Made by a program: the position numbers and the translations under genes. DNA of 64,000 nt from contig JAHQJS010000005.1 of the NCBI GenBank assembly GCA_019057385.1, positions 64,001-128,000 on the forward strand, given 5' to 3'. How positions within the stretch are numbered: the stretch's first letter is position 1; every line of letters starts with the position of its first letter. Of the stretch, positions 9,291 to 64,000 are shown in pieces. The notes under the pieces were generated by a model that saw nothing but the letters and a program-made list of their open reading frames with translations, was not told the origin of the DNA and made no database searches. The stretch comes from Candidatus Borrarchaeum weybense (GTDB taxonomy: Archaea; Asgardarchaeota; Sifarchaeia; Borrarchaeales; Borrarchaeaceae).

Positions 9291-9575
9291 TTACTCAATG
9301 AGTTTGAGGATTTCTCCTTTTTTTTCTTCATTAATTGTGTATTTGACAGGAGAACCGTGTCGAATGGCGTTACGTGTAGGATCTATATGATGCTCGACCA
9401 CTAGACCATTTTCCATGAGCCATACTAATCGATGACTTATGATATCACTAGTTATTTTATCGCTTTGCGACTTTGTCTTCATTACTAAATGACTTGCTGT
9501 AAGTTCACCTTCAGATAGCAACGTTTTTAGTACTATTGAATCTAATTCTTTGTCAAAACCAGGCATTTCGCTCAT
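9291..9575 (-). CDS. winged-helix DNA-binding protein
   Basis: ISHRLVWLMENGLV...KYTIN wHTH pattern; GGTGA RBS. Confidence 0.65.
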   Translation of the reverse strand: MSEMPGFDKELDSIVLKTLLSEGELTASHLVMKTKSQSDKITSDIISHRLVWLMENGLVVEHHIDPTRNAIRHGSPVKYTINEEKKGEILKLIE

Positions 9576-9768
9576 TAATATCACCACGTTATCTTCAATG
9601 TTTCAAATTTGGCACTTATATTATTATTTTCAGCGGCAACTAGGAGTGTTTCACGTATGGGCTTCTGGTGAACAATAGAGTTGTAGAAATTGTATGATGG
9701 GGAACTAAACTAAAGAAAAAACGAAAAAAATTGCTAAATTACTAACCTTGTTTTTAAGCAGTTTATAT

Positions 9769-14478: not shown

Positions 14479-15705
14479 CTATGTGCCTAGCACTGCAGAA
14501 GATAATGCTAGGTTGCAATGCATTATTTCCTTTTGTTGAGTCGTTGCTTGTTCGCCGAAAACATTGTATCCGATGAACGGTGTGTCACCAAGAGCCATTT
14601 TTGCCTGTTCGACTACTTCACCGACTCTATCCCCAATTGCCAGTCTACATCCAGCACAGTGGACGAGAAAACCGAAACTTGGTTGTGATATCTTGCCCAT
14701 GTCAATCGCTCTCTTAAAGACTGCATTAGTCTCCGCAACTAATTCATCTTGTGTAGCAGACAAAACAGCAATATCAGCCCCTTGAGGAAATACCACATAA
14801 CCATCTATTGATAGATCCTCATTGACATTGCCAGGATGCACCGTCTGCCAATAGCCCTCGTGTGCAATTCCGATCGGATTAAAGAAGGATTCGCTTAATA
14901 TCGCTCCACCTTTAATTGAGTCTAAAGTTTTGCCCGCCCATTCCGCATAGACTTCTGCTGCGGGGCGCCCATCTATTTCGTAGAGTGTCCTTCCTTTGGC
15001 CTTCGTTGCTTTACCACGTTTCAAAGGTTCATATTCCTGACTATAACTATAGCCAACCTTAAGATCCTTTGAATACAAGCAAGCTACCGATAAATAGTCG
15101 CTGTATACGTCCAAATCAGCAAACTGCTTCCATTTACCCTCAAGTGTATTATCCGCTGAGGTGCCTCCAACTATTGGAAACATTGTAGGGACGGCACTTC
15201 TAATCCCACGGATGTGCCCCTCTTCAACTCCCGGTGCAGCGCACATCAACACCAAATCCGGTGGATGGCGTTCAGTTTGCCCTACCGCAGTAGTCGTACG
15301 TGAGTCCACAGCGGTCTGAACGTGTTCACCAACATCGGCTAAGGCTCGTTTCATTGCGAGTTCGCCTTCACCGAAACCATCACTTCTGATTTTTGTCGCC
15401 CCTACGCCAACAGTCAAAGTCGGTGAAGATAAAATTGCTACCCCTACAGAGCCATTTTCACTTTCAATAAAACCGTCAGGGGTCCACACACCACCTAATG
15501 ATGTCCCGCCCCATAGTGGCGCTCTTTTTGTGGCTTTATTGATTCCATTTATTATTTTTTGTTCATTATATTGAACTGTGCAAAATGCTATTGTAAAGGT
15601 TGGTTCGGCACCGCCAAGTTGTGCTAGAGCTTTATTAGCGGCTTCTGTTCCTGCCTCTTTCGGATCTTCCAAAGTAGAATATCCTATTCCTACCTTCAAG
15701 GACAT
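14479..15705 (-). CDS. FIST N/C domain protein
   Basis: GGTSADN, LYEIDGRPA, HCAGCR, GYNVFGEQ, HCN. Confidence 0.85.
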   Translation of the reverse strand: MSLKVGIGYSTLEDPKEAGTEAANKALAQLGGAEPTFTIAFCTVQYNEQKIINGINKATKRAPLWGGTSLGGVWTPDGFIESENGSVGVAILSSPTLTVGVGATKIRSDGFGEGELAMKRALADVGEHVQTAVDSRTTTAVGQTERHPPDLVLMCAAPGVEEGHIRGIRSAVPTMFPIVGGTSADNTLEGKWKQFADLDVYSDYLSVACLYSKDLKVGYSYSQEYEPLKRGKATKAKGRTLYEIDGRPAAEVYAEWAGKTLDSIKGGAILSESFFNPIGIAHEGYWQTVHPGNVNEDLSIDGYVVFPQGADIAVLSATQDELVAETNAVFKRAIDMGKISQPSFGFLVHCAGCRLAIGDRVGEVVEQAKMALGDTPFIGYNVFGEQATTQQKEIMHCNLALSSAVLGT

Positions 15706-16629: not shown

Positions 16630-17472
16630 ATGTCCAAAAAAATGTCTGACCGAGTTAAGAGGATACAAAATCCTCAGAGAATTCTAAAAGTGGTTGCTTA
16701 TACCGCAATCGCCAAACCGTTAAACGGTTCTCTTCCTAGAAGTAATAATTCGCATTTTTTGAGATTATATCCTATAAAGTATTCTTACAGGAATGGTAAA
16801 GAGGAAAAGGAAGCTTTCTCTATATCGTATTTACTTAAAGGGATTAGAGGAGCTATTAGGCATCAAGTGATGAAGACTTGTTATGATGCTGGTGTGGAGG
16901 TGTGCCACACTAGCGATAAAGCGACCGATAAAGCGGGCAACAGTCTTCTTCCTAAAGGTTTTCATCTTTCGGGTTCTTGTAAGGGCAATGGTGAATGCAT
17001 AGTTCATCAAGTTTTTGGATCTATGGGTACTGAAGGTTTAATTTCTGTCTACGCAGAGCCAATTACAGCAATTTCTCATAAATCGGCTAAAACTGAAGTT
17101 AAAGTTCAAAAAGTCCATATTGCCACTGAAAATCGTGTTTGCATGACTTTTGATAACAAACCTGTCCAAGACTTTGGCGAGCGGTATTTTTCCGGTGAAT
17201 TTACCTTTGAAATTGATGTTACGCGTTGTACAAGTGAACAAATTGGTTTATTGATTGAATCAGTTATTAACATGCAAAGACTAGGCAGAGGATACAATGC
17301 GGGATATGGTAGGGTTCAAATTAAGCGATTTCAATTATTAGAGCGCATAATAAAGAGGATTCCGGAGTGGCAAGAAGATAACTTCATTGTCAAAGAAGAA
17401 CTTAACGAAATTTCGTTAAAAAACGAGGTTGTAGAGGCGATGGAGGCTTGGAATGCTTACGTTAATACTTGA
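16630..17472 (+). CDS. cas7: Cas7-family RAMP (Csm3-like), copy 1
   Basis: KGIRGAIRH helix, Cys/His-rich insert ending CIVHQVFG, thumb HIATENRV, G-rich loop LGRGYNAGYGRV. Confidence 0.8.
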   Translation: MSKKMSDRVKRIQNPQRILKVVAYTAIAKPLNGSLPRSNNSHFLRLYPIKYSYRNGKEEKEAFSISYLLKGIRGAIRHQVMKTCYDAGVEVCHTSDKATDKAGNSLLPKGFHLSGSCKGNGECIVHQVFGSMGTEGLISVYAEPITAISHKSAKTEVKVQKVHIATENRVCMTFDNKPVQDFGERYFSGEFTFEIDVTRCTSEQIGLLIESVINMQRLGRGYNAGYGRVQIKRFQLLERIIKRIPEWQEDNFIVKEELNEISLKNEVVEAMEAWNAYVNT

Positions 17473-18274
17473 AGGTCAAATTGTAACTCCAATTGTCACT
17501 AGGAAAACTGAATTTTATATGGAAGGATGTAAAGCTATAATTAAGCATCCAAGAAGACGTTATTACAATAAAATTAATGCATCTAAGCCGATGTATCCCT
17601 ATTCATTTCAGTGCTATTTAGGAGCTATTGAATTACACTTTAGATGTTCAAATACTGCAAAACTAAAACAGAAATTAAAAGATTTGTTGCAGATTAAAGC
17701 GATAGGGCGCTTTCATAGTGAAGGGATGGGATTGGTCCAATGGATCAAGGGCACCATACATTCGAATTATGAGCCAACTCACACAAAAAATACACGAACA
17801 CTCCGAATTCGCAAAGGTCTTCCTCATAATTTAACAAAAGATACCAAGAAACTGTTATTGTATGCTTTGCTTCATGATTTTGTTAATACGCCTAAACATA
17901 AATCTAAAATTTACATAGAACCGAATCTAGACGGCATAGCGTATTTATGCAACCATCATGATAAAACAGAAGACAGTTTCATTCAGTTATTTCAGAAATA
18001 TGACCATCTAGCGGCCATGATTACAAGAAAGATAAGGTCACCCAGAACTAATAGGTATAACTGGTCTTCCAATAGCAATATTAATTTTGAAAAATTAGCA
18101 ACAGAGATAAAGGAGGTGGCATCCAACATTTGGAAGTTGTATGATTACATCTATCAGAGTAAAGAACTAGAGCAATTAAACGAAAGTTTACAACATGGCC
18201 ACACGTCATTAAGAAATCATTTACTGGTGATAGTCAATTTAATAGTGCATGATTTTCAAAGAAATGAACTTTGA
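17453..18274 (+). CDS. Cas5-like RAMP fused to Cas10-type permuted HD domain, copy 1
   Basis: G-rich loop IGRFHSEGMGLV; LLHDF, H, NHHD, YDHLAA and C-terminal TSLRNHLL. Confidence 0.7.
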   Translation: MLTLILEGQIVTPIVTRKTEFYMEGCKAIIKHPRRRYYNKINASKPMYPYSFQCYLGAIELHFRCSNTAKLKQKLKDLLQIKAIGRFHSEGMGLVQWIKGTIHSNYEPTHTKNTRTLRIRKGLPHNLTKDTKKLLLYALLHDFVNTPKHKSKIYIEPNLDGIAYLCNHHDKTEDSFIQLFQKYDHLAAMITRKIRSPRTNRYNWSSNSNINFEKLATEIKEVASNIWKLYDYIYQSKELEQLNESLQHGHTSLRNHLLVIVNLIVHDFQRNEL

Positions 18275-19677: not shown

Positions 19678-20187
19678 ATGACACTTAGTGACACCATGAG
19701 AGACTCCCTAAATGATCAAGTAAAATGGGAATTATGGAGCGGGTATTATTACCTCTCAATGGCAACATACTTCTACGAGAAAAACCTACCTGGATTTGCG
19801 AAATACTGGACCGTACATGCAGCGGAAGAACAAGAACATGCAATGAAGATCTTCAAGCATATCGTCGAACGAGGAGGAAGAGTTACTCTCCAAACAATAG
19901 AGCAGCCTCAAACTGATTGGAATTCACCTTTACACGTTGCGGAAGAAGTTGTAGAACATGAACGAAAAGTAACTGGTATGATAAACAACTTAGTTACTAT
20001 GGCAAAATCAGAGAATGATTATGCTACAGAAGTTTTTCTACAATGGTTTATTGATGAACAGGTAGAAGAAGAAGAGGGTGCTGAGAAGGTTTATAATCAA
20101 GTGAAACTTGCGGGTGATTCTGGCACTGCTTTACTGATGTTAGACATTGAATTCGCTAAAAAAGCGGCAGCAAAGGAAGAGGATTAA
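19678..20187 (+). CDS. ftnA: ferritin
   Basis: LNDQVKWE, YLSMA, EEQEHAMK, LQWFIDEQVEEE. Confidence 0.95.
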   Translation: MTLSDTMRDSLNDQVKWELWSGYYYLSMATYFYEKNLPGFAKYWTVHAAEEQEHAMKIFKHIVERGGRVTLQTIEQPQTDWNSPLHVAEEVVEHERKVTGMINNLVTMAKSENDYATEVFLQWFIDEQVEEEEGAEKVYNQVKLAGDSGTALLMLDIEFAKKAAAKEED

Positions 20188-20376
20188 ATTAATTCCTTTG
20201 GTCTAATCATACTTAAGGAAACCTATCGCAAGTCTCCTAATAATTTTTTTCTTTTTTTTATGATTTACAGTTCACTCAGATTTTTTTGTTCATCATATTA
20301 GAAAATTAGAAAAGAAAAAAGCAGAATATAAGGCTAAAAAAATTATAGGCCGGTGGATGCGTATTCATCAGCGGTA

Positions 20377-21237
20377 TCAATAGAGTGAGTAATCTAACAC
20401 GGTGTTACAAGAGCATTCTTTATCCGTAGGGATTCTTGGAATAACCTCAAATAGGAGTTTATTTACATTTTTGACGTTTTCTTTCATAGATTGAGCGACT
20501 CGTTCTGCAGTGACCGGAAGCACACCATAGACATCTGTATCTGTTATCAGGGCAATACTTGCAAAACATATTTCTGCTTCTCGACACAAGCAAGCCTCAG
20601 AAAATGCAGTCATGCCGACACAAGACCATCCTTGTGACTTGTAAAACAACGATTCTGCACGAGTGGAGAAACGTGGCCCTTCCATACAGACATATGTGAA
20701 CATTTTTTTCTCTTTTTCCTCTTCTGGAGTAGGATGGACAACAACTTCATTATTTGGCCAAAGTTCACGTGCAGTATCGAGAATTACACGTCTCAATTCA
20801 TCACAAGTTGGATCTGAAAATGGTACATGTCCTGTTAGTCCTCCTTCATAGAATGACAAAGGTCGACGTATTGTAGTTCGATCAAAAAACTGGTCACTAA
20901 CTACGAATTCATAAGGTTTGATAAAATCGGGCTGTAATGATCCCACCGCTGCAGGAGAAATAATCCTTTTCACGCCCAGTTCTTTCATTGCCCAAACGTT
21001 TGCACGATAGTTTACACGGAATGGGGGGATTGTATGATGTCTTCCATGGCGCGGTATAAACGCAACTTTTTTGCCTTTAATCCAACCTACAAGAACAAGG
21101 TCACTGGGAGCACCGTAAGGGGTGTAAATCTTTATCTCTTTCGCGTCTTCAAAGATATCAGGATCATAATTGCCTGTTCCGGCAAAATAACCAATTTCCA
21201 CATCTTTTTCTTCTGGTTCAATTCGTGTGCTTGCCAA
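20377..21237 (-). CDS. mtnP: 5'-methylthioadenosine phosphorylase (MTAP/PNP family)
   Basis: TPYGAPS, PRHG..HTIPP..VNYRAN, EGPRFSTRAES, VGMT. Confidence 0.9.
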   Translation of the reverse strand: MASTRIEPEEKDVEIGYFAGTGNYDPDIFEDAKEIKIYTPYGAPSDLVLVGWIKGKKVAFIPRHGRHHTIPPFRVNYRANVWAMKELGVKRIISPAAVGSLQPDFIKPYEFVVSDQFFDRTTIRRPLSFYEGGLTGHVPFSDPTCDELRRVILDTARELWPNNEVVVHPTPEEEKEKKMFTYVCMEGPRFSTRAESLFYKSQGWSCVGMTAFSEACLCREAEICFASIALITDTDVYGVLPVTAERVAQSMKENVKNVNKLLFEVIPRIPTDKECSCNTVLDYSLY

Positions 21238-53699: not shown

Positions 53700-54035
53700 T
53701 TTCAATCACCTCAAATTTTTTAGATTTCTATTTTTATTTTTCAAAAAAGTTGGAAACGAGGGGGTATCAATAGCTGTTGAAATAGTGGGCTACTGCCACC
53801 GCCAAGAATGCCAGGGATGCCAAGAAAAGTTTGAAAAGCTCAAAGCTAAGTCAATTAAAAATTCAGGAGTAAAATCTGTTGGAGTTTTATAAAAACCTTT
53901 TTCCGGGCAGGGTGGTTTAGCTTCAAGACTGAGAGAAAAGAAAAGACATTTTGTTAAAGCAAATCCCATTGGCGCAATCAAACCACCTAATCTGCCTATT
54001 TCTTTAGGCTTGTTATTTAAATCTTTCTCTGTTTT

Positions 54036-54183
54036 ATTACATTTTTCGTCCCCTGCGAGTCATCCATTCCCAACAATTGAGGCGTCGGACCTCTGAATTG
54101 GTTCAGTCTCATGCACAAGAACGTGTCCCACGTGATATACGAGGAACATACCGCCTTGTAACTCATGTATTCTCTTTCAAAGA
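54036..54183 (-). repeat. long structured repeat R3 (148 bp), putative guide-RNA scaffold
   Basis: 9 mismatches versus 55447-55594; TTTATATA box just upstream on the minus strand (54194-54187). Confidence 0.9.
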
Positions 54184-54351: not shown

Positions 54352-54534
54352 TCACTTCTGTCGATTTTGCATCGCTCCCCACCTTGAAGATTTCTTCCTG
54401 TTCGTCAAATTTAACTCATGATGTTCCGCTAGGAGCCGATACAAGTTGTAACGTGGCAATAAAAAGTTGCATTCGAGGCAACAAAATGTTGTTTTAACAG
54501 ATTCAATACAATGATCCATTCTTGTCATGTTCAC
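54352..54534 (-). CDS. possible small ORF coupled to the Cas5-HD gene
   Basis: GTGA overlap with the upstream stop; no recognisable motif. Confidence 0.25.
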   Translation of the reverse strand: MNMTRMDHCIESVKTTFCCLECNFLLPRYNLYRLLAEHHELNLTNRKKSSRWGAMQNRQK

Positions 54535-55343
54535 AAACCACTATTCAAGTCGTCAAGATAGAGATTTACCATTAATAAGAGATGATTTTTCAAAGACGAA
54601 AACCCAAATTTTAACGCTTCGTTGATCTTATCAAGTGCTTGACATTTTCGAATAAAAGTATAAAGGGCATACGGGGAATATTGGCACTTTTCTATCTCTC
54701 TTTTTAATGCATCGAAATTTATCTTTTCTAGTTCAGTCACACGATAACGCGTGAACGCAGACCATCTAAATTTTCGAGAAATCATTGCAGAAAGTCTATC
54801 ATAATACTGAAGAAGAGGGAGAAGAGGCAATTCAGCCTCATCTGTATCATAGTTGTGGTGATTTTCCACAAACTTACGGACTTCTTCATCAAGTATATTA
54901 ACTTCAGAGTAGATTTTGCTCTGATGTCGATTAGTGTGTACGAAATCATGTAGTAACATAGCTATAACTAATGTTTCTTGCACGTTGGAGAGTTTAGGGA
55001 GTTTTTTACGGATCTTAATTGTTCTTGAAATATAGAGCGGATTTTTTTTGAGTTTACTAACAGAAGTCCATAAGATTTGCCCCATCCCTTCACATGTATA
55101 ACTCCCAACACTGTCAATGGCGAGCGCTTCTTCAAGTTTATATTCTGGAACGATGAACTCAACATTTCCATACCATGCCCTAAAGGTCATAGGCGCACGT
55201 CTTTGCCCTACAGTCAATTTTCCGAATACCCTAGGACGACCATTTATGGTCATCGCTCCAATATCGGCAATTCCAAAATGCCTGCGCCTTGAAACGATAG
55301 GAGTTTTTGTATAACCCATTAATTTAAAGTATTTTTGTGACAT
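54531..55343 (-). CDS. Cas5-like RAMP fused to Cas10-type permuted HD domain, copy 2
   Basis: TPIVSR, VGSYTCEGMGQI G-loop, IRKKLP, LLHDFVHT..HQSKIY, NHH, YDRLSA, SSLKNHLL; collinear with 17453-18274. Confidence 0.7.
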   Translation of the reverse strand: MSQKYFKLMGYTKTPIVSRRRHFGIADIGAMTINGRPRVFGKLTVGQRRAPMTFRAWYGNVEFIVPEYKLEEALAIDSVGSYTCEGMGQILWTSVSKLKKNPLYISRTIKIRKKLPKLSNVQETLVIAMLLHDFVHTNRHQSKIYSEVNILDEEVRKFVENHHNYDTDEAELPLLPLLQYYDRLSAMISRKFRWSAFTRYRVTELEKINFDALKREIEKCQYSPYALYTFIRKCQALDKINEALKFGFSSLKNHLLLMVNLYLDDLNSGL

Positions 55344-55446
55344 TTAATCCCCTCTTTTTAGGTCTTATCTCCTCTTGAAACAAAAGAGAGGAGATACAAA
55401 CCTTGCCAAAGTAAACGCTTTTGCAACTTTTATTAGTAAAGTGGGT

Positions 55447-55594
55447 ATGACATTTATCGTTCCTTGCGAGTCATCCTTCCCCAACAATTGAGGCGTCGGA
55501 CCTCTAAATTGGTTCAGTCTCATGCACAAGAACGTGTCCCACGTGATATACGAGGAACATACCGCCTTGTAACTCATGCATTCTCTTCCAAAGA
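55447..55594 (-). repeat. long structured repeat R2 (148 bp), putative guide-RNA scaffold
   Basis: Direct repeat of 54036-54183; internal hairpins GAGG-N7-CCTC and ACGTG-GGA-CACGT. Confidence 0.9.
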
Positions 55595-55717
55595 GATACT
55601 ATTATTAATATAGTACACGTACAGGCGTCAAGAAGGAAGGAGAGGATTAACCTCTCCCTAAAGTAGGACGGTGTTAAAGCAACATCCGTTGGCGCAATCA
55701 AAACCGCCTGTATTTTG

Positions 55718-55806
55718 ATGACATTTTTCGTCCCCTGCGAGTCATCCTTCCCCAACAATTGAGGCGTCGGACCTCTAAATTGGTTCAGTCTCATGCACAT
55801 GAACGT
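55718..55806 (-). repeat. repeat R1 (89-bp core of the long repeat)
   Basis: Near-identical to the minus-strand 3' 89 nt of R2 and R3. Confidence 0.9.
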
Positions 55807-55868
55807 ATCACTCACAAAAGTAAGTGATAGTCCGTTATGAGATGAGAAAAAAGAATGAGATGGAGTTA

Positions 55869-56687
55869 TCATGCAGTCACCGTTTCTTCGTTTTGTTCGT
55901 TTTGTTCGCTAAAATTCAAAGAATCCCTCCAATCCTCGATATTACTGAGAGAGATAGGTTTTTCAGTTGCTTTTTCGACAATTTTATAATTTCCTTTGTT
56001 ATCTTCCGCGACATTGCGAGTAGTTTCGATCTTCTGGAGGTCGAAATTGAAAATCGTGACGCGACCATAACCACTCGCTCGTCCTGCGCCCAGAATCTCA
56101 ACATATAATAGCGATTCCATGAGAAACTTGATTTCTGTATTCGTTAATTTGGTCACATCAATGTAAAAACTGAAATAGCCGCTGAAATAACTCTCCCTAA
56201 AATCTTGGATAGCTATACCATCATAGGTGAGCGCAATTCTGTTTTCACTAGCGATATGGACTTTTTGGACTGGAACTTCAGTTAAGTATTCTTTATGTTT
56301 GATTGAGGCAATAGGATCTGCTAACACATTAATAGAAGATTTCTCGCCAAATGCACCAAAGATTTTTCGCAGAATGCAGGGAGGATCACATGTACCAAGT
56401 GCATGAAAACCAGAAGGGATGAGTCCAGTGCCATCTTTGAATGTCTCCTTTTCACTGGTATGACATACCTCGATACCGCACTCCTGAGCGAGCGCCATAC
56501 AGGCATGTCTTAGCATCCCTCGAATACCTTTGATATAATAGAATTTAGTGTTGAAGGTTTTGTCTCCATTCACATACGGAAGTTCTCCTAACAAAAGCAT
56601 GGTCGAATTTTTTTGAATCGAGGCATTAAGAGGCTTAGCAATAGGGGTAAAAGCATGAACCACTAACTGTTTTTTGATTTTTCTCAT
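55869..56687 (-). CDS. cas7: Cas7-family RAMP (Csm3-like), copy 2
   Basis: IAKPLN, KGIRGMLRH, EVCH...C...CILRKIFG, HIASENRI, LGAGRASGYGRV; collinear with 16630-17472. Confidence 0.8.
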   Translation of the reverse strand: MRKIKKQLVVHAFTPIAKPLNASIQKNSTMLLLGELPYVNGDKTFNTKFYYIKGIRGMLRHACMALAQECGIEVCHTSEKETFKDGTGLIPSGFHALGTCDPPCILRKIFGAFGEKSSINVLADPIASIKHKEYLTEVPVQKVHIASENRIALTYDGIAIQDFRESYFSGYFSFYIDVTKLTNTEIKFLMESLLYVEILGAGRASGYGRVTIFNFDLQKIETTRNVAEDNKGNYKIVEKATEKPISLSNIEDWRDSLNFSEQNEQNEETVTA

Positions 56688-56721: not shown

Positions 56722-56776
56722 TATATAAACCTTGCTCAAAATAAACACTTTTCCAACTTTTATTAGTAAATTGGGG
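56722..56776 (-). promoter_or_regulatory. cas7 promoter region (TTTATATA box), matched by the guide after R2
   Basis: TATA at 56729-56722, 35 bp upstream of the ATG; GAGGT RBS. Confidence 0.7.
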
Positions 56777-57033: not shown

Positions 57034-60000
57034 TTAGGGTAAAAGATCCTTTACAGCAACTGGAGGACCTTTTTTCGGTGGTTTATAGATGCCTTCCAGA
57101 TGTTGAAACCGCTCATACATCAAGTGGAGAGTTTCCTTATCTGGAGCGTAGATAAAGGGGACAAAGCGCTTTTTTTCCAACAAAAAACCCTTGAGTTGTA
57201 GTGCGCACCGCCTTATAGCTTCCTTTACTGTCATATATTCTTCTAGATAGTATACCTTTTGAGCGAGTATGTTGTTAACCAATCTCTCAACTTTGTAGTG
57301 TCCATTCCAGTTAAGATGATAGAATCGTTCACGCTCTAGTGTTTTACGTCGAATGAAATCAGTTTTCGCAAATTTATCATGTATACATGCAAAGATGAAG
57401 GCGAACCTGAACAGGGGAAGAAACACCTCTCGGAAGTCAACAACAGTGCCAAGAAAAGATCTTTGTTTTTTCTTATAATGCAATATCAGTTCGTTGGGTA
57501 CCCAGGAGAACCCTGCCTCAGCGAGTGCTTTTCGACAGTAAAAGTTAAGGTGTCGATAGACAGCATTGAGTGCAGCACTAAAGGGAGTTCGCGCCTTTGC
57601 TTCCCCCAGAAGCACCACTGTGGCAATATAGCGGTCGAGGGTACGACTGATGATTTCAAAATAACTGCCCTGAAGCAAATGCTTGGGAACCTCCCAGGCA
57701 ATGCTTTCCACTACGCCTTCAAGACCGCGAAGGTTGTCAATATTGCCCCGCCAATAGAGAAACGTATACGCCACGCGATCCAGTAGTTGGGATAAGAATT
57801 CCTGTGCCTCTGCAGGAGATAATAATCCCTCTTTTTCAAAATGGAGAATTGCATTGGCGAGTCCCATATTTTTACTCATCACCAGCAACCTCGCTAATAA
57901 CTTGCCTCGTTCCGTCTCTCTGAGTTGCTGGGCGGCGTGTTTCAGTTCATCGGCTAATTGTTGTTTCTCGGGTGTCAGTGTATGCTCTACAAAGAATCTG
58001 CCTTCGGGCGAATTAATATCAATGAGTTTTTTACCATAGTTCTTACGAACCTGTTGCGTAACTTCTCCACCCTCGATGATGATGTGACGGATAGCACCGA
58101 TTAAATATCGCTGTGTTGTTTTCCCGTCCTTTAAGGAATGAGTAAATCGTTTTTTCTTAATATCAAGCTGTTCACCGCACTTGACACGGATGATTCGTTT
58201 TGGTCGTCGAATGTAAACCCTTGTTTTTTTAACCCGCGGGACATAATTTCCAGCCTTGCCTAAAAGCAATTCCAACCCTTTTAACATCAAACCTCGGCGG
58301 CCTGGTTTCACCACTAGGTCACCTTTCATGGTTAAATAATAGCGGGAATTGCATTCAGGACAGACGGTGTATTCGTTATAGCGTGACGGCAGTTCCACTG
58401 TACCGTCGGAGTTGCAGAAGTAGCATGGAGTATCATCAAGTGTTTCTTGTAAGACACGAATTGTGCGCTTTTTTAACTTCCGCGCTTTCGTATGATATTC
58501 GCAGGCACCCATCTTTGGTGCGACATAAGACTTTCTTGCTCGCCTTCCAACTTTTGTGTTATACTTACGATTCAACACGCAAATATGTGCACGTTTCGAT
58601 CTGCGACGGTCCTTCATGGAGTTTATCCGAAAGAAGCCACATGAGCCACAGGTGAGGCGCAGATGTTCAGGAAGACTCACATTCACATCTGCCACATAGA
58701 TTTTGGGGCGACCTCGTAACTGCCCTTGAGAGATAAACTGGATTTTTCCCTGGATTCCTAACCGCTTGACATGTTTAACTACCGTGGTGTAGTGAACTGG
58801 TCTTTTATATTGCTTACGAACTTTTGTCGTAATTTGTTTATAAGAAATAAGTTTATACTGTTTAATAAAGGTGTAGATTGCTTCCTGAAGTCCTGGATAT
58901 GGTTTCGGTCTATGTTTTGGATACCAGCGTCTCCTTCTGCCTTTGTTCCCTCTTTCAACTTCAGGCTCTTTGTATTCAGGATTTAGTTTTGAGGTAAGTT
59001 CTTTAGCAACCCTTGCCGCCCTCGGGTCGCTGCGCCCCAGATAGTCATAACTTGCTTCTGCGATCCATGACGCCGTCTTTCTATGTGCTTCTGCATCACC
59101 CGGTCTTATGTTTACCCGAGTTGCCGCTTCTGTGACTGAAGAACCCTGACTGAGTAACCATACGAAAGAGGTATATTGTTGGGTGGTGTATCGTGTGGTG
59201 CTGCTCACTTCATGCATGCTTCGCCCGATTAGTGTAATCACGTGCCGGGAGAATTCCCGTTCTGAGGAGCAGTGATGTGTGGCAAAAAAATTCTTGATCC
59301 TGATGGCGGTTTTAGTCGGCAGTAAAAATTGGCTGGCCCAGCGTCCTTTGGCTGTTGCACTAAACTTTCCACCATTTCTTTTGATAAAACCTTCCTTGAT
59401 AAGTGTGTGAAGGATTCCCTCTCTTTTTTTCTTCGGTTCATCCTGCTTAGGTCGAGCTAACAGTTTCTCTCTTAGTTGTTGTGTAAAGTCTTTCAACTGG
59501 TCGTGGGTGAATGGTGTCAACAGTAAGCGAAGCTCTCCATTTTTGATTCCGCGTGTAGTGGTGTTCTTCTTGACCCACATGAAGAATTTTCTCGTTACGC
59601 GTTTCAAGTCGAATGGGAGAGAGCCTTCGTGCGTTTCGCGCAATAAGGAGAGTAAATGAAGTTCGTTATTGAGCCAGCAAAGCTCCTCCTCATGAGTCAA
59701 GAGTGCGGTATTCATTAGTTCGGACCAATTCTGTAGCAACGCTTTGTGTTGATGCCAGAAGTAATGTCTTTCAAGTTTGAGGAGCAATTGTTTCGTGGAT
59801 ACCGAGCCTCTAGCTATCAGGGTGAGTACAATATCTGCCAAAGAAGAACGAGCTTGGCTTACTATACGATGTTCTTTGACTATCAATTGTCCTTCAACGA
59901 TTTGAATATCCTTTTGCTTCAAAATCTCTTGGTCGTCCCCCACGAAGATCAGATCGGCATAGCCCACCCGATGATGGCGCGGTCGTGCCGCCCTGCCGCT

Positions 60001-61125
60001 CAATTGTATCAACAGTTGAGAGCTGAACATTCCTGCATCGGCAATTATCACCCTTTTGATCGGAAAGTCCACCCCCTCTCCGTATTGAGTCGTTGATAAA
60101 AAGACCTGAAATTCACCCTTCTTAAGTTTTCTCATAGCTTTTTGTTGTTTCTCTTTACTGAGCCCAGCATGGCTGTAGCCAACGGTTAGATTGAGCCCAA
60201 AACTCTTTAGAAAGGTCTGCAATTCTTCAGCGCGTTGTTCAACCTGATTTCGTGTGTAGCAAAAGATATGCACGATTTTAGTCCGCTGATCATCGCCATA
60301 TGAGTGTAGTTCAAAGGTCTTTTTGATCAAGCGAGCGAACAGAAAGCGCTTTTTTCGTTCGATCTGCTCTATTGTGCTGCCTGAAACTCCAAAAGACGAT
60401 ACAATAAGTTTCGACCGCCGTTCTTTGGTATGGATAAGTTGAGCATCGAGCCAGCTTGCCAGTTCCTCAGCATTCCCCAAAGTAGCCGAGAGATAGATGA
60501 TGTGAGGACGAGGTCGCAACCACGCTTTCGCATTGACAATCGCGGTTTCTAGACACGTACCCCGCCCTTTGTTACCCAGATTATGCAGTTCATCGACTAC
60601 AATTAATCCTATCCTGTCTAAAAACGGATACTCGAAATGTTTGGCTAGCAGCCCATTGAAGGATTCGTAGGTGATGATGAGGATATCCGCAGTTTCAAGC
60701 TCTTCAGGAGACGGTCGGTTATCTCCGCTGACCCGGAGGATGGTGCAGATGTCGTGATACCACTCTTTGAACCTGTCATACATCTGATCGATCAGCCGTT
60801 TGGTCGGCTCAAGGATCACACAGCGCATCCCTTTTCCAAGGATGCGGGTGGACACTATTTGGGCGATCAAGGTTTTTCCAGAAGCGGTGGGAGTGTATAA
60901 CACTTTGTCATGTCTTTGCTTACCAGAAAAGCATGCCTCCCATTGAAAGTCATAGAGAAGTTTAATGTCAGCCTGTTCCAATTGTTGACGTATAAATTCG
61001 TAGTTTAACCCTCTTTTCGTCATTGTAAGGAACTGTCCCCTCAATCCCTGTGTCTCACTTATGATGGTTGAAAAGTTCTTTATAAAGAGGGCAAACCTTT
61101 GGATCACTGGCTTGATAACTGTCAC
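57034..61125 (-). CDS. Ski2/Hel308-like SF2 helicase - wHTH - Zn fingers - Cas1-like integrase fusion
   Basis: Helicase motifs PTASGKT, VVDELH, LSAT, HAGL, GEGVDFP, QLSGRAAR; Cas1-like LRGLEG, PFSAALNAVY, ILH, VVDFREVF. Confidence 0.8.
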   Translation of the reverse strand: MTVIKPVIQRFALFIKNFSTIISETQGLRGQFLTMTKRGLNYEFIRQQLEQADIKLLYDFQWEACFSGKQRHDKVLYTPTASGKTLIAQIVSTRILGKGMRCVILEPTKRLIDQMYDRFKEWYHDICTILRVSGDNRPSPEELETADILIITYESFNGLLAKHFEYPFLDRIGLIVVDELHNLGNKGRGTCLETAIVNAKAWLRPRPHIIYLSATLGNAEELASWLDAQLIHTKERRSKLIVSSFGVSGSTIEQIERKKRFLFARLIKKTFELHSYGDDQRTKIVHIFCYTRNQVEQRAEELQTFLKSFGLNLTVGYSHAGLSKEKQQKAMRKLKKGEFQVFLSTTQYGEGVDFPIKRVIIADAGMFSSQLLIQLSGRAARPRHHRVGYADLIFVGDDQEILKQKDIQIVEGQLIVKEHRIVSQARSSLADIVLTLIARGSVSTKQLLLKLERHYFWHQHKALLQNWSELMNTALLTHEEELCWLNNELHLLSLLRETHEGSLPFDLKRVTRKFFMWVKKNTTTRGIKNGELRLLLTPFTHDQLKDFTQQLREKLLARPKQDEPKKKREGILHTLIKEGFIKRNGGKFSATAKGRWASQFLLPTKTAIRIKNFFATHHCSSEREFSRHVITLIGRSMHEVSSTTRYTTQQYTSFVWLLSQGSSVTEAATRVNIRPGDAEAHRKTASWIAEASYDYLGRSDPRAARVAKELTSKLNPEYKEPEVERGNKGRRRRWYPKHRPKPYPGLQEAIYTFIKQYKLISYKQITTKVRKQYKRPVHYTTVVKHVKRLGIQGKIQFISQGQLRGRPKIYVADVNVSLPEHLRLTCGSCGFFRINSMKDRRRSKRAHICVLNRKYNTKVGRRARKSYVAPKMGACEYHTKARKLKKRTIRVLQETLDDTPCYFCNSDGTVELPSRYNEYTVCPECNSRYYLTMKGDLVVKPGRRGLMLKGLELLLGKAGNYVPRVKKTRVYIRRPKRIIRVKCGEQLDIKKKRFTHSLKDGKTTQRYLIGAIRHIIIEGGEVTQQVRKNYGKKLIDINSPEGRFFVEHTLTPEKQQLADELKHAAQQLRETERGKLLARLLVMSKNMGLANAILHFEKEGLLSPAEAQEFLSQLLDRVAYTFLYWRGNIDNLRGLEGVVESIAWEVPKHLLQGSYFEIISRTLDRYIATVVLLGEAKARTPFSAALNAVYRHLNFYCRKALAEAGFSWVPNELILHYKKKQRSFLGTVVDFREVFLPLFRFAFIFACIHDKFAKTDFIRRKTLERERFYHLNWNGHYKVERLVNNILAQKVYYLEEYMTVKEAIRRCALQLKGFLLEKKRFVPFIYAPDKETLHLMYERFQHLEGIYKPPKKGPPVAVKDLLP

Positions 61126-61176
61126 AAAATCCCCTCTTTATAAATTAATTATAACCTATTGACAGTAGTGGCAACA

Positions 61177-62124
61177 ATGTCTTTCGAAGAACACCTTAAG
61201 CAAGGAAATGAGTTTTATGAACAGAAACAATACCGAAGGGCGTTAAAACATCTCACAAAGGCTGCAAAATTAAAACCAAAAGACTATCAACCTTGGCAGA
61301 AATGTGGAGATATTTATTTTACTTTGCACATCTATCAGAAGGCAATCAAATGTTGGAAAAAGGCGTTTGCGAAAAAACCTGACGAAATGTCACCCTTGGT
61401 CGGCATAGCTAATTCATACGGATTCTTGGGCGAATACGAAAAAGCCATCAAATACTGTCAAAAGATATTGAATACACAACCAAACTTTCCTTTAATTAAA
61501 CTCTTGATGAGCAATATAAAAGATGTACAAGAACATTCACCTCTTACCGATGAAGAGGTAGCAAAAATAAAAGAAGCAGATTCAAAAAAGGTCATCACAA
61601 GTGTCGTAATCCGTGGTATAGACTATTATGTTATTAATAACACATTAAAACTTCGCGATCTAAATATCAAAGATATTAAACACATCAAAGGATTGGAAAA
61701 TCTTACCAATCTCCAAGAACTTGATCTAAGCGGGAATAAAATATCAGTAATTGAGGGATTAGACACACTTTGCAATCTTCAAGAACTTAATTTAAGTGCG
61801 AATAAAATTACTATGATACAAGGTTTAGATACCCTTACCAAGTTACAAGTTTTAGAACTTTACGACAACCAGATCAATAGGATAACTGGACTGGATAACC
61901 TTACGCAATTGAAAAAGTTATATCTTAATGGGAACTCGATAGAAACAATTGACGGAGTGGAACAACTCACGAATTTGGAAGTTTTAAGCCTTGCAGATAA
62001 CCCTCTATGTGAGGAAGATCGACGCGTGTACGAACGAAGTGTGACAGCTATGGATGCCCAGTATTGTGTAAAATATTGCCAGAAAAAGATGTCGATATTT
62101 TCTACCAAGAGTCCTAATAACTAA
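61177..62124 (+). CDS. TPR + leucine-rich repeat (SDS22-like) protein
   Basis: Three TPRs followed by LxxLxxLxLxxNxIxxIxGL repeats. Confidence 0.9.
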   Translation: MSFEEHLKQGNEFYEQKQYRRALKHLTKAAKLKPKDYQPWQKCGDIYFTLHIYQKAIKCWKKAFAKKPDEMSPLVGIANSYGFLGEYEKAIKYCQKILNTQPNFPLIKLLMSNIKDVQEHSPLTDEEVAKIKEADSKKVITSVVIRGIDYYVINNTLKLRDLNIKDIKHIKGLENLTNLQELDLSGNKISVIEGLDTLCNLQELNLSANKITMIQGLDTLTKLQVLELYDNQINRITGLDNLTQLKKLYLNGNSIETIDGVEQLTNLEVLSLADNPLCEEDRRVYERSVTAMDAQYCVKYCQKKMSIFSTKSPNN

Positions 62125-62134
62125 ATAGAGAATC

Positions 62135-62220
62135 AATAGACTTCCTTTTATGATATAAAGTGATTAAAAAGGCTTTTAGTTGAAAAATCAAAGAAAGAGT
62201 AGAACCCTCTTTGTAAATAA
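62135..62220. repeat. 86-bp direct repeat, copy B
   Basis: 66/86 ungapped identity to 56781-56866. Confidence 0.7.
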
Positions 62221-62612
62221 TATGAAGACTAAGAATGTAAGTTGATGAGATCTGAAAATATTTATTTTGTTGATTTACAGATCTCTTCAAATTAATTAGT
62301 CATAATTAACTTTTCAGAAAATTTATGTAGGAGAATCCATATTACATTTTAGTTAATCATAAGAAGCGATATTAAGAAGTTACTATATGAAAGATTATTC
62401 TGATTTAAATTTTACTTTCACCCATCACACTCTAACTCTTATTTGGGTTACATTAAATGTATTAATTATGAAGTTTAGTTGTGCATTTTTGTCAAAATAA
62501 AAATGATAATAATGCAAGTATGTGCTATCAAATAAGATGAGGGGCAGAGTTTACTCTTTTTAATGGGGAAATTCAATCTTCATCTTAACAATGATTTTAG
62601 AGAGTGATAAAC

Positions 62613-63308
62613 ATGGGAGCGATCGAAGGGTTTGTAGTAGGTATTGCCTCTAATGTAGCTTATGATTTAATCAAAAAGCTTTCAAGAATTGAAATATTCA
62701 AGCAGATACCAATAAGAACTAGTTTCAGTCTTGTAATTAATTTTAGAGAAGGTATCGAGGTTATTGAAATTGATAATAATTTGACTAAGACATTTCGAGA
62801 AGAGTTTGGAATCAAAAAAGATCAGAAGAAAGTACCATTTATTGAAATTGATAATCTAAAATTATATGTACTTATAGACTACCATTATCTTGAAGATAGC
62901 GAAAAAATCATTGATGCTTTGAATGATATCTTTGAAATAAGAGAGGAAGATGCAGTTCAACCAGAATTCATAGATGCATTAACCATACAAATTTTTCCCG
63001 ATGATACGAAAGAATTAGATGACATATTAATGGTTATGGATGTTTTGAAAGATATAAAGAGACTTATTCAACGTGATTACAATATTGAAAAAGATTTGAT
63101 CTGGCTACGCTTGGATGTTGATGATGAAAAATCAGCGATCTTAATACAAAAGAAACTTGTTGAAAGTTTTCCCGAATTAATTATTATTAAAAATAAAGAT
63201 ATGCAGAATAATGTTTTTTTGAAAATAAAAGATACTAGTGACTTAGAATTAAAACAAATAATAGATGTTCTAAAATCTAACAGAATCAGAAAAATACTAC
63301 ACATTTGA
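62613..63308 (+). CDS. hypothetical protein
   Basis: Long AT-rich ORF, no recognised motif. Confidence 0.6.
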   Translation: MGAIEGFVVGIASNVAYDLIKKLSRIEIFKQIPIRTSFSLVINFREGIEVIEIDNNLTKTFREEFGIKKDQKKVPFIEIDNLKLYVLIDYHYLEDSEKIIDALNDIFEIREEDAVQPEFIDALTIQIFPDDTKELDDILMVMDVLKDIKRLIQRDYNIEKDLIWLRLDVDDEKSAILIQKKLVESFPELIIIKNKDMQNNVFLKIKDTSDLELKQIIDVLKSNRIRKILHI

Positions 63309-63317
63309 GATGATTTA

Positions 63318-64000
63318 ATGGTTTTTGTCTGCCGAGTTTTGAAAATTATGCCAAGATATGATGATCAAGTCAAGCAATTATTGAAAAAACCATCTGAAAT
63401 AGTATTTGATACAATAAGACAAAGTGAACTCATTGAATTAAAGCTATACATAGATGAACCTGCTGAAGAGAACGATTTTGGCTTTTTAATAACAGCCTAT
63501 GTTGATATACCTCAAACATTATGGAGTAAAGATACAGGTACTTATTCTACGAAAATCACAAAAAAACTAGAAGTTCAAATATTTACTACTCCTGAAGTTG
63601 GAAACTATTTAGTCGTATTTGCATCAAATATTCTTGTAAAGGAATTTGTAAATTCTGTAACTAAGATATTAAATACAGTTGAATGGTTTAAGCCAGTATT
63701 AATAGATACTGACCGAAAAGAGGAAGAGATAAGAAATGAGTTAGGCGATTTTAGGCGTGTTTACGTGAAAGATATGGATGATGATCTTGTAAAAACAGCA
63801 ACAATGGGTGGTCTAAGACTAGAATTGTCGTCAGATTATGCTAGATATATTAGAGATTATGGGGGTAGGCTAAGTGCAGTTTCGCTTATTTATGAAGGTA
63901 ATTGGATGATGATAACGTTTAGAGGAATTTTTTATTCACCTAGTAAAGATGCCGAAAGTAGGAAAGTTGAAATAATTCACAACTTACTGAAACTTCTAAA
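63318..64000 (+). CDS. hypothetical protein, truncated by window end
   Basis: Open frame MVFVCRVLKIMPRYDDQVKQLL... running off the window. Confidence 0.6.
   Translation, partial: MVFVCRVLKIMPRYDDQVKQLLKKPSEIVFDTIRQSELIELKLYIDEPAEENDFGFLITAYVDIPQTLWSKDTGTYSTKITKKLEVQIFTTPEVGNYLVVFASNILVKEFVNSVTKILNTVEWFKPVLIDTDRKEEEIRNELGDFRRVYVKDMDDDLVKTATMGGLRLELSSDYARYIRDYGGRLSAVSLIYEGNWMMITFRGIFYSPSKDAESRKVEIIHNLLKLL

Follow-up and report, generated by a model that had tools for sequence, protein, structure and literature searches.

ARAMP systems of Asgard archaea have been reviewed as array-less derivatives of type III CRISPR systems, with a distinct Cas1 and an 'enigmatic' mechanism, and some of them have been considered to be perhaps tied to new mobile elements (PMC8730458, PMC12669027). 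The two reviews hold no mention of a structured repeat RNA of ~110-150 nt, of host-matching tails or of insertion and empty-site pairs; the original description (Makarova et al. 2020, CRISPR J) might mention repeats.

Here we describe a locus in a 64,000-nt stretch of the genome of Candidatus Borrarchaeum weybense (contig JAHQJS010000005.1, positions 64,001 to 128,000), referred to below as the window. The gene set of this locus corresponds to the ARAMP systems. With ARAMP, and with the haloarchaeal HRAMP systems, it shares a diverged Cas7-like protein, a Cas1 homolog of a distinct kind, occurrence in multiple copies and the lack of a classical CRISPR array; ORF270 is a candidate for the second RAMP protein of these systems. 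At the window locus itself the Cas7-like RAMP protein is present, the Cas1 homolog is fused to a helicase, and there is no CRISPR array. In contrast to the array-less systems of the reviews, the locus carries long repeats, which we call R, with variable tails. We suggest, with a probability of about 60%, that the segment at 55658-55717, the 3´ tail of the repeat R1, is the insertion-site-matching guide tail of a mobile ARAMP cassette, carried by a guide RNA for the RAMP effector.

An insertion upstream of trpB2

Empty sites were sought in five relatives (G001-G005) and in the genome holding the window (G000). In G004, which belongs to the same genus, trpB2 and the small ORF that precedes it are collinear with the window (95.7% identity over 1688 nt) up to position 53987, and homology resumes at genome coordinate C5:128549, equivalent to window position 64549. 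The same empty arrangement is found in an independent 8.4-kb metagenome contig of the G004 lineage. The window carries an insertion of ~10.5 kb that starts at 53989, with the junction at 53988/53989 and the far end at about window 64531-64548, past the window edge. The junction is not an assembly artefact, because contigs from two studies (three runs of one study and one contig of the second) bridge the host sequence X, the adjoining 47 nt and the terminal repeat R3. A sequence-only reading of the window had suggested looking for an empty allele upstream of trpB2 in related genomes, and G004 supplies one. There, as in the metagenome contig, 53952-53988 is host sequence and not part of the element. 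The features of the locus are as follows.

53952-53988, minus strand: X, the host target copy; adjoins the insertion directly; a small Trp-rich ORF that lies upstream of trpB2 has its start codon here (53969-53967)
53989-54035, minus strand: 47 nt of insertion-specific DNA, from R3 to the host junction; missing from the empty site
~54036-54183, minus strand: R3, terminal repeat preceded by a TATA-like box; paralogous homology ends at its 3´ edge
54531-55343, minus strand: ORF270, 270 aa, with a predicted N-terminal RAMP-like beta-sheet domain and a helical domain
55446-55594, minus strand: R2, full 149-nt repeat with an R3-type 5´ part
55630-55671, minus strand: tail 3´ of X´, with a 13-nt linker, a perfect 8-bp hairpin (55639-55658) and a U-rich run; terminator-like
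55672-55709, minus strand: X´, putative guide core of 38 nt; 34/39 against 53952-53988 and 30/39 against the G004 empty site
55710-55717, minus strand: 8-nt linker from the end of R1 to the host-matching segment
~55718-55865, minus strand: R1, putative structured RNA repeat with an R1-type 5´ hairpin and the common 92-nt core; begins just past the RAMP stop codon
55869-56687, minus strand: Cas7-like RAMP protein, 272 aa (Pfam RAMPs, 1.5e-07)
57034-61125, minus strand: Hel308-like SF2 helicase fused to a C-terminal Cas1 domain, 1363 aa; candidate cassette integrase
61126-64000, plus strand: remaining insertion, with an LRR/TPR protein gene and two ORFs without a family; not common to paralogous modules

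The sequence-only reading correctly placed the end of the match 47 nt from the R3 edge at 54036. These 47 nt are not a gap like that of CRISPR-associated transposons (CAST), since they are element DNA and the target adjoins the insertion. The 47-nt stretch has no match elsewhere in the genome or, by an exact search with the R3 tail, in viral contigs, and the DNA between X´ and X has no further copy in the genome. No target duplication was found at the window locus, and the two ends of the 10.5-kb insertion carry no terminal inverted or direct repeats above shuffles.

The host side of the junction is marked by a small ORF (53790-53969, minus strand) with a Trp-rich peptide at its end, which is kept in the element-free relative. 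The insertion now lies 19 nt upstream of the ATG of this ORF, such that transcription from R3 may read into the trpB2 operon. Toward the other end, a gene at 61159-62124 on the opposite strand encodes TPR and leucine-rich repeats, with a 66-nt internal tandem repeat; it is absent from the paralogous modules and may be cargo.

The cassette proteins

The 1363-aa ORF matches the Pfam families DEAD (2.8e-27), Helicase_C (1.2e-14) and, at residues 984-1261, Cas_Cas1 (3.9e-09); in NCBIfam it matches Hel308-type helicases, with cas1 at 2.6e-07, under the cut-off. The AlphaFold model of the 272-aa protein (pTM 0.68) is predicted to have a Cas7 fold, with Foldseek matches to gRAMP/Cas7-11, type IV-A3 Csf2, type VII Cas7 and Csm3 (E 5.6e-06 to 1e-04, best probability 1.0). 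ORF270 has no sequence hit in Pfam, NCBIfam or PDB, and its model (pLDDT 76) gives weak Cmr3/Csm4/Cas5-like hits (E about 0.1-0.5). In an alignment of 14 homologs, the helical domain of ORF270 has invariant residues H132-D133, H140, N161-H162-H163 and D182, a pattern that is HD-nuclease-like.

The genome encodes six helicase-Cas1 copies and ~10 RAMP/ORF270 pairs, and the copies of both sets are 34-89% identical. Homology among paralogous modules is confined to the stretch between the terminal repeat's 3´ edge and the helicase-Cas1 start codon, and no conserved left end was found across insertions. Module copies that are 82-89% identical sit at different host sites in different genomes; thus, the cassettes move. 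The protein family was found in 32 of 400 genomes of the phylum. A far more diverged RAMP/ORF270-like pair (42% and 34% identity) is present at 16675-18256 of the same window. In a genome of the sister family, an R end adjoins DNA equivalent to window ~19869-20452.

A repeat predicted to form a structured RNA

R1, R2 and R3 all lie on the minus strand, downstream of the 1363-aa and 272-aa ORFs, with ORF270 between R2 and R3. They are direct copies of 92-149 nt with start-to-start distances of 271 and 1411 nt; R2 and R3 are 94% identical, and R1 has the 92-nt core in common with them. The genome holds 22 copies of R, corresponding to an RNA of ~110-150 nt. Among 35 distinct copies, the pairing of the 5´ hairpin is kept through many double changes, with one pair being G-C in 27 copies and A-U in 7, and this covariation supports a structured RNA. 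The closing stem contains G-U pairs that are possible on the gene strand only, the fold of R1 has a z of -4.1, and a conserved TATA-like box precedes the R3-type copies. R3, which the sequence-only reading called a terminal repeat, is not a transposon end in the Tn7 sense and is better described as a putative RNA gene whose 3´ end marks the end of the conserved module.

By BLASTN with R cores, R was not found outside this genus and class, nor in the phylum's other families that carry the protein. Within the 64-kb window, no short-repeat CRISPR array, no Rfam match at gathering thresholds and no tRNA gene were found.

Downstream of R1, the unit consists of 8 nt, the 38 nt of X´, a 13-nt linker, the perfect hairpin and a U-run. 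A hairpin and T-run likewise follow the guide segment in other complex units, and on sequence grounds the R1 unit looks like a scaffold whose 3´ side holds a guide and then a terminator. What follows the repeat is different in each of ~35 copies, such that X´ is not a conserved 3´ scaffold motif, an outcome that the sequence-only reading had named as refuting its proposal. The tail after R2 (55394-55445) also has a partner, at 56723-56775 upstream of the RAMP gene (49 nt, 90%). This pairing is found in six other paralogous loci, co-varying among them and reaching 38/39 at one, and could reflect either a common promoter or a self-directed guide.

The tail of R1 matches the host sequence at the junction

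An ungapped repeat search of the window gave 27/31 identities for 53952-53982 against 55672-55702. A global alignment of X´ and X has 39 columns, of which 34 are identical, two are substitutions and three are single-base gaps. The substitutions are at 55706 and 55688, positions 12 and 30 counted from 55717, with C in the guide in both cases. All of these values, for 55672-55709 against 53952-53988, reproduce the sequence-only reading. Its suggestion that mismatches fall at multiples of six is not supported: there are only two substitutions, the three gaps break the register, and mismatches in the better-preserved pairs of other loci are not 6-periodic.

When the 60-nt tail of R1 was compared with both strands within +/-12 kb, the top local match was X, with a score of 22 against a maximum of 14 over 30 shuffles (z 8.8). 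X is also the best match for the tail in the 4.18-Mb genome, with an ungapped BLAST E of 0.19, and E is 5e-4 when the search is confined to the 13-kb locus. The genome-wide E alone is weak, and the match carries weight because of its location; the similarity of X´ and X is beyond chance. An exact search of viral contigs with the R1 guide core gave no match. The reverse complement of X also resembles 56297-56322 within the RAMP gene (22/26; E 0.5 within the locus), which is probably chance.

The changes between X´ and X were polarized with G004 as the only outgroup lineage (the contig found in the single metagenome scan is of the same lineage), and by this comparison X´ (30/39) is less outgroup-like than X (34/38) at the window locus. 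The repeat-proximal half of X is nearer to X´ than to the outgroup sequence.

The relation between tail and junction recurs at other loci

Across one genus and one sister genome, the relation was seen at six or more other loci, with near-perfect matches (E 5.8e-07, 2.6e-06 and others). In seven insertions of the genus, the host junction sequence is repeated as a copy of 27-78 nt that starts 5-9 nt downstream of R; two insertions have inverted copies.

Locus 2: 5.25 kb, RAMP only; tail 36/38 against the ancestral pyrD start region, junction at the pyrD start codon
Locus 3: 6.9 kb; 30/31, target 0-7 nt from the junction
Locus 4: 10.35 kb; tail a copy of ftsY nt 115-149, upstream host flank stopping exactly at +114
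Locus 5: tail against junction sequence 26/34
G004:C46: copy of junction sequence, 78 nt
G004:C24: copy of junction sequence, 26/27
G004:C95: 2.57-kb insertion with a 7-bp duplication; inverted copy (27/28) of host DNA that lies on the other strand, 11 nt beyond the opposite junction
G003:C130: inverted copy of host DNA, 224 nt inside the flank

In one case, G004:C9 (L051), three tandem R units ending at 2893, 2629 and 2404 lie between the RAMP gene and ORF270. Two of their tails match C5:332707-332749 and C5:351104-351144 of G000, pointing inward. The two stretches are the ends of an 18.4-kb segment that G000 has in common with three relatives and that G004 lacks. The breakpoints fall 6-11 nt within the matched stretches.

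Locus 4 shows about 114-130 nt of the ftsY 5´ region on both sides of the insertion (G000 C4:338827-338940 and C4:349294-349407), with ftsY intact. The guide and the resident target change together, with GCAGCT in both or GCGAAT in both, a three-base difference between G000 and ENA scaffold L103, which has the insertion in common with it. This co-variation points to gene conversion, re-acquisition or selection for matching, as judged from the two alleles.

The loci differ in other respects. Duplications measure 0, 7, 8, 62 or about 130 nt, and the distance from target to junction varies too. At locus 3 the junction carries a significant remnant of the R 3´ end (14/15), and at loci 2 and 4 none reaches significance. 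For the seven best pairs, no motif common to the target surroundings was visible by eye. Beside locus 3, G000 has a ~380-nt insertion relative to G004 and G003 (C3:90934-91313), which is present in many copies in all genus relatives and looks like a small non-autonomous repeat element.

Guide tail or copied flank

In the reading that we prefer, R and its tail would constitute a guide RNA for the RAMP effector, and the guide part would specify the element's own attachment site. X´ lies on the same strand as X, with its repeat-proximal end facing the element, and the helicase-Cas1 protein would join the R-bearing end of the element beside the recognized site. We infer that the R RNA is made and loaded on the RAMP proteins, and that this complex recognizes the site alongside which Cas1-helicase acts. 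At the window locus, R1 may once have ended the element against X, like the terminal repeats at 17 other sites described below. Later, the R2-ORF270-R3 segment, itself ending in R, would have been placed at the same target, duplicating 38 nt. Since X´ is degenerate, with two substitutions and three indels relative to X, the guide is now probably a relic or a tolerated self-match. A tandem dimer or unequal recombination between R copies was also considered as the source of the present order R1, X´, R2-ORF270-R3 and X, and was rejected because the repeat subtypes do not fit.

The strongest alternative is that X´ is a by-product of integration: host DNA beside the joined R end was later split from the rest of the flank by an insertion or by staggered-cut repair that duplicated ~38 nt, leaving a fossil junction without any targeting. 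We consider this less likely. Seventeen distinct sites show R, followed by 1-13 nt (mostly 6-7), simply adjoining host DNA that runs for hundreds of bases, and host-derived sequence begins at the same offset in these simple loci as in the complex ones. At loci 1, 3 and 4, X´ and the upstream flank form one uninterrupted stretch of the ancestral sequence. ENA scaffold L104 shows exactly the architecture presumed for the precursor, namely a 5.85-kb element with helicase-Cas1, RAMP, R and 7 nt followed by host DNA, and without ORF270. The element is flanked by a 62-nt host duplication (9534-9595 and 15450-15511), and G000 C4:918799-918860 is the empty site. The tails and the intervening DNA are unrelated between loci, even where the unit repeats are 94% identical, and the guide at the window locus is degenerate.

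Several observations do not fit a by-product. The inverted, non-contiguous copies at the far junction of G004:C95 and at G003:C130 cannot be in-situ flank, and the units of the G004:C9 array carry remote host sequences. In every complex unit, the copy is followed by a terminator-like hairpin. At loci 2 and 3 and at G004:C95, the copy adjacent to R is nearer to the outgroup (36/38, 30/31 and 27/28) than the resident, mostly coding, copy, and at ftsY the guide and the target co-vary.

Within the guide-tail reading, a guide that came first, as in CAST, and a guide copied from the flank after insertion, as in OMEGA systems, have roughly even odds. Evidence for the first comes from copies that are inverted or remote, from the arrays and from breakpoints that fall within matched stretches. 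The many simple junctions, the precisely conserved R end, the L104 architecture and the unrelated tails and intervening DNA favor the second. The sequence-only reading had called X´ a possible homing guide. The part of this proposal that stands is that the tail matches the integration site, as tails do elsewhere. That the guide directed the insertion does not follow from the match, given that the tail may be flank-derived or an insertion duplication.

Other points weigh against the guide-tail reading. X and X´ differ by five events, including three indels, and guide positions 1-8 do not match, which makes present-day pairing doubtful. The unrelated tails and intervening DNA are not predicted by a simple model in which spacers are swapped, and most related loci, where the repeat simply adjoins host DNA, need no separate guide. 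The varying target distances and duplications, together with the lack of a conserved left end and of terminal inverted repeats, also count against the guide reading, as does the finding that X´ is less outgroup-like than X at the window locus. The models tried explain neither where the hairpin tails come from nor why duplication sizes vary and a conserved left end is lacking.

A regulatory role for the tail is improbable. In such a scheme, the R1 RNA would bring a RAMP complex that lacks a nuclease to where the small ORF/trpB2 operon begins, or to its transcription bubble, and so control the neighboring host genes in a way resembling CRISPR interference. At loci 1-4 the targets do coincide with the 5´ ends of host genes that are co-oriented and have had their native upstream regions displaced, and in every locus the second tail (at 55394-55445 here) matches sequence upstream of the cassette's own RAMP gene. 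However, the guide has the same sense as the mRNA, such that no pairing with it is possible, and in relatives many R ends point at intergenic DNA or at the 3´ ends of convergent genes. Regulation would not predict that the targets coincide exactly with insertion junctions, and the second protein, ORF270, retains an HD-like motif. Finally, a chance similarity of two AT-rich non-coding stretches, compatible with the genome-wide E, is effectively refuted by the local z, by the position of the match exactly at an independently mapped junction and by the recurrence of the relation, with near-perfect matches, at other loci.

A tail that copies the insertion site, at this and at other copies of the element, suggests that sites are chosen or marked in an RNA-linked manner that is so far undescribed. 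ARAMP thereby gains an RNA component, movement within a genus and RNA tails that correspond base for base to the sites of the element. Even as fossil junctions, these loci would form a dated series of insertions by Cas1 elements for which empty sites are available. To our knowledge, such series are scarce for archaea.

Comparison with known systems

One parallel is provided by the homing spacers of CAST (type I-F3, I-B and V-K). In both cases an element-borne guide matches the chromosomal site beside the element, and RAMP subunits of the Cas7/Cas5 type take part in the effector. The cassette has neither Tn7-type genes (TnsB/TnsC/TniQ) nor a CRISPR array, and a Pfam scan of the larger ORFs of the insertion returned only helicase-Cas1, RAMP and LRR/TPR, with two further ORFs without a family; the candidate integrase is the helicase-Cas1 fusion. 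The geometry also differs. CAST insert about 50 bp past the repeat-distal end of the target, whereas the cassettes adjoin the repeat-proximal side at 0-11 nt (0-3 nt at the window locus). The duplication made by CAST is 5 bp; those of the cassettes are variable, and there is none at the window locus.

OMEGA systems (IS200/IS605 TnpB and IscB, with omega or right-end RNAs) have in common with the cassettes a scaffold RNA gene at the element end that uses the adjoining host DNA as guide, an arrangement resembling that of the 17 terminal R junctions. For R1 of the window locus, in contrast, the putative guide is a separate and degenerate copy of the flank. Guide-sized copies in the cassettes measure about 27-45 nt, apart from one of 78 nt; in some units the tail is a separate copy with its own terminator, and units also occur in tandem arrays. 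The proteins of the two kinds of system are unrelated. OMEGA systems rely on a single RuvC nuclease and TnpA, whereas the cassette encodes a multi-subunit RAMP effector and Cas1-helicase, with no RuvC-type domain in the locus proteins.

Casposons are likewise mobile and have a Cas1 homolog as integrase. Unlike in casposons, no family B polymerase was found in the insertion at the window locus, which has no terminal inverted repeats and no fixed 14-15-bp duplication and carries a putative RNA component. CRISPR adaptation by Cas1-Cas2 resembles the window locus in that insertion occurs by a fixed landmark with a duplication of roughly 30-40 bp, as X´ and X flank the inserted DNA beside R. The cassette differs by duplicating host DNA rather than a repeat, by pieces of 150-1700 nt, by the lack of cas2 and by a duplication length that is not constant. 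Moreover, CRISPR arrays consist of regular 23-55-nt repeats and similar-sized spacers, whereas R repeats are 92-149 nt long with irregular spacing.

We tentatively propose that ARAMP systems are autonomous and non-autonomous mobile elements in which a class-1-type RAMP effector with a long scaffold RNA directs helicase-Cas1 to join the R end. We regard this broader model as possible but more doubtful than the guide-tail reading of R1 itself. It would represent RNA-guided integration with an origin independent of CAST and OMEGA and built on the enzyme of CRISPR adaptation. Should the RNA direct or safeguard Cas1-mediated insertion, CRISPR-type guides and DNA mobility would have become linked a third time by independent evolution. 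This would have a direct bearing on the long-held view of Cas1 transposons as the ancestors of CRISPR adaptation and would offer a compact candidate for programmable integration.
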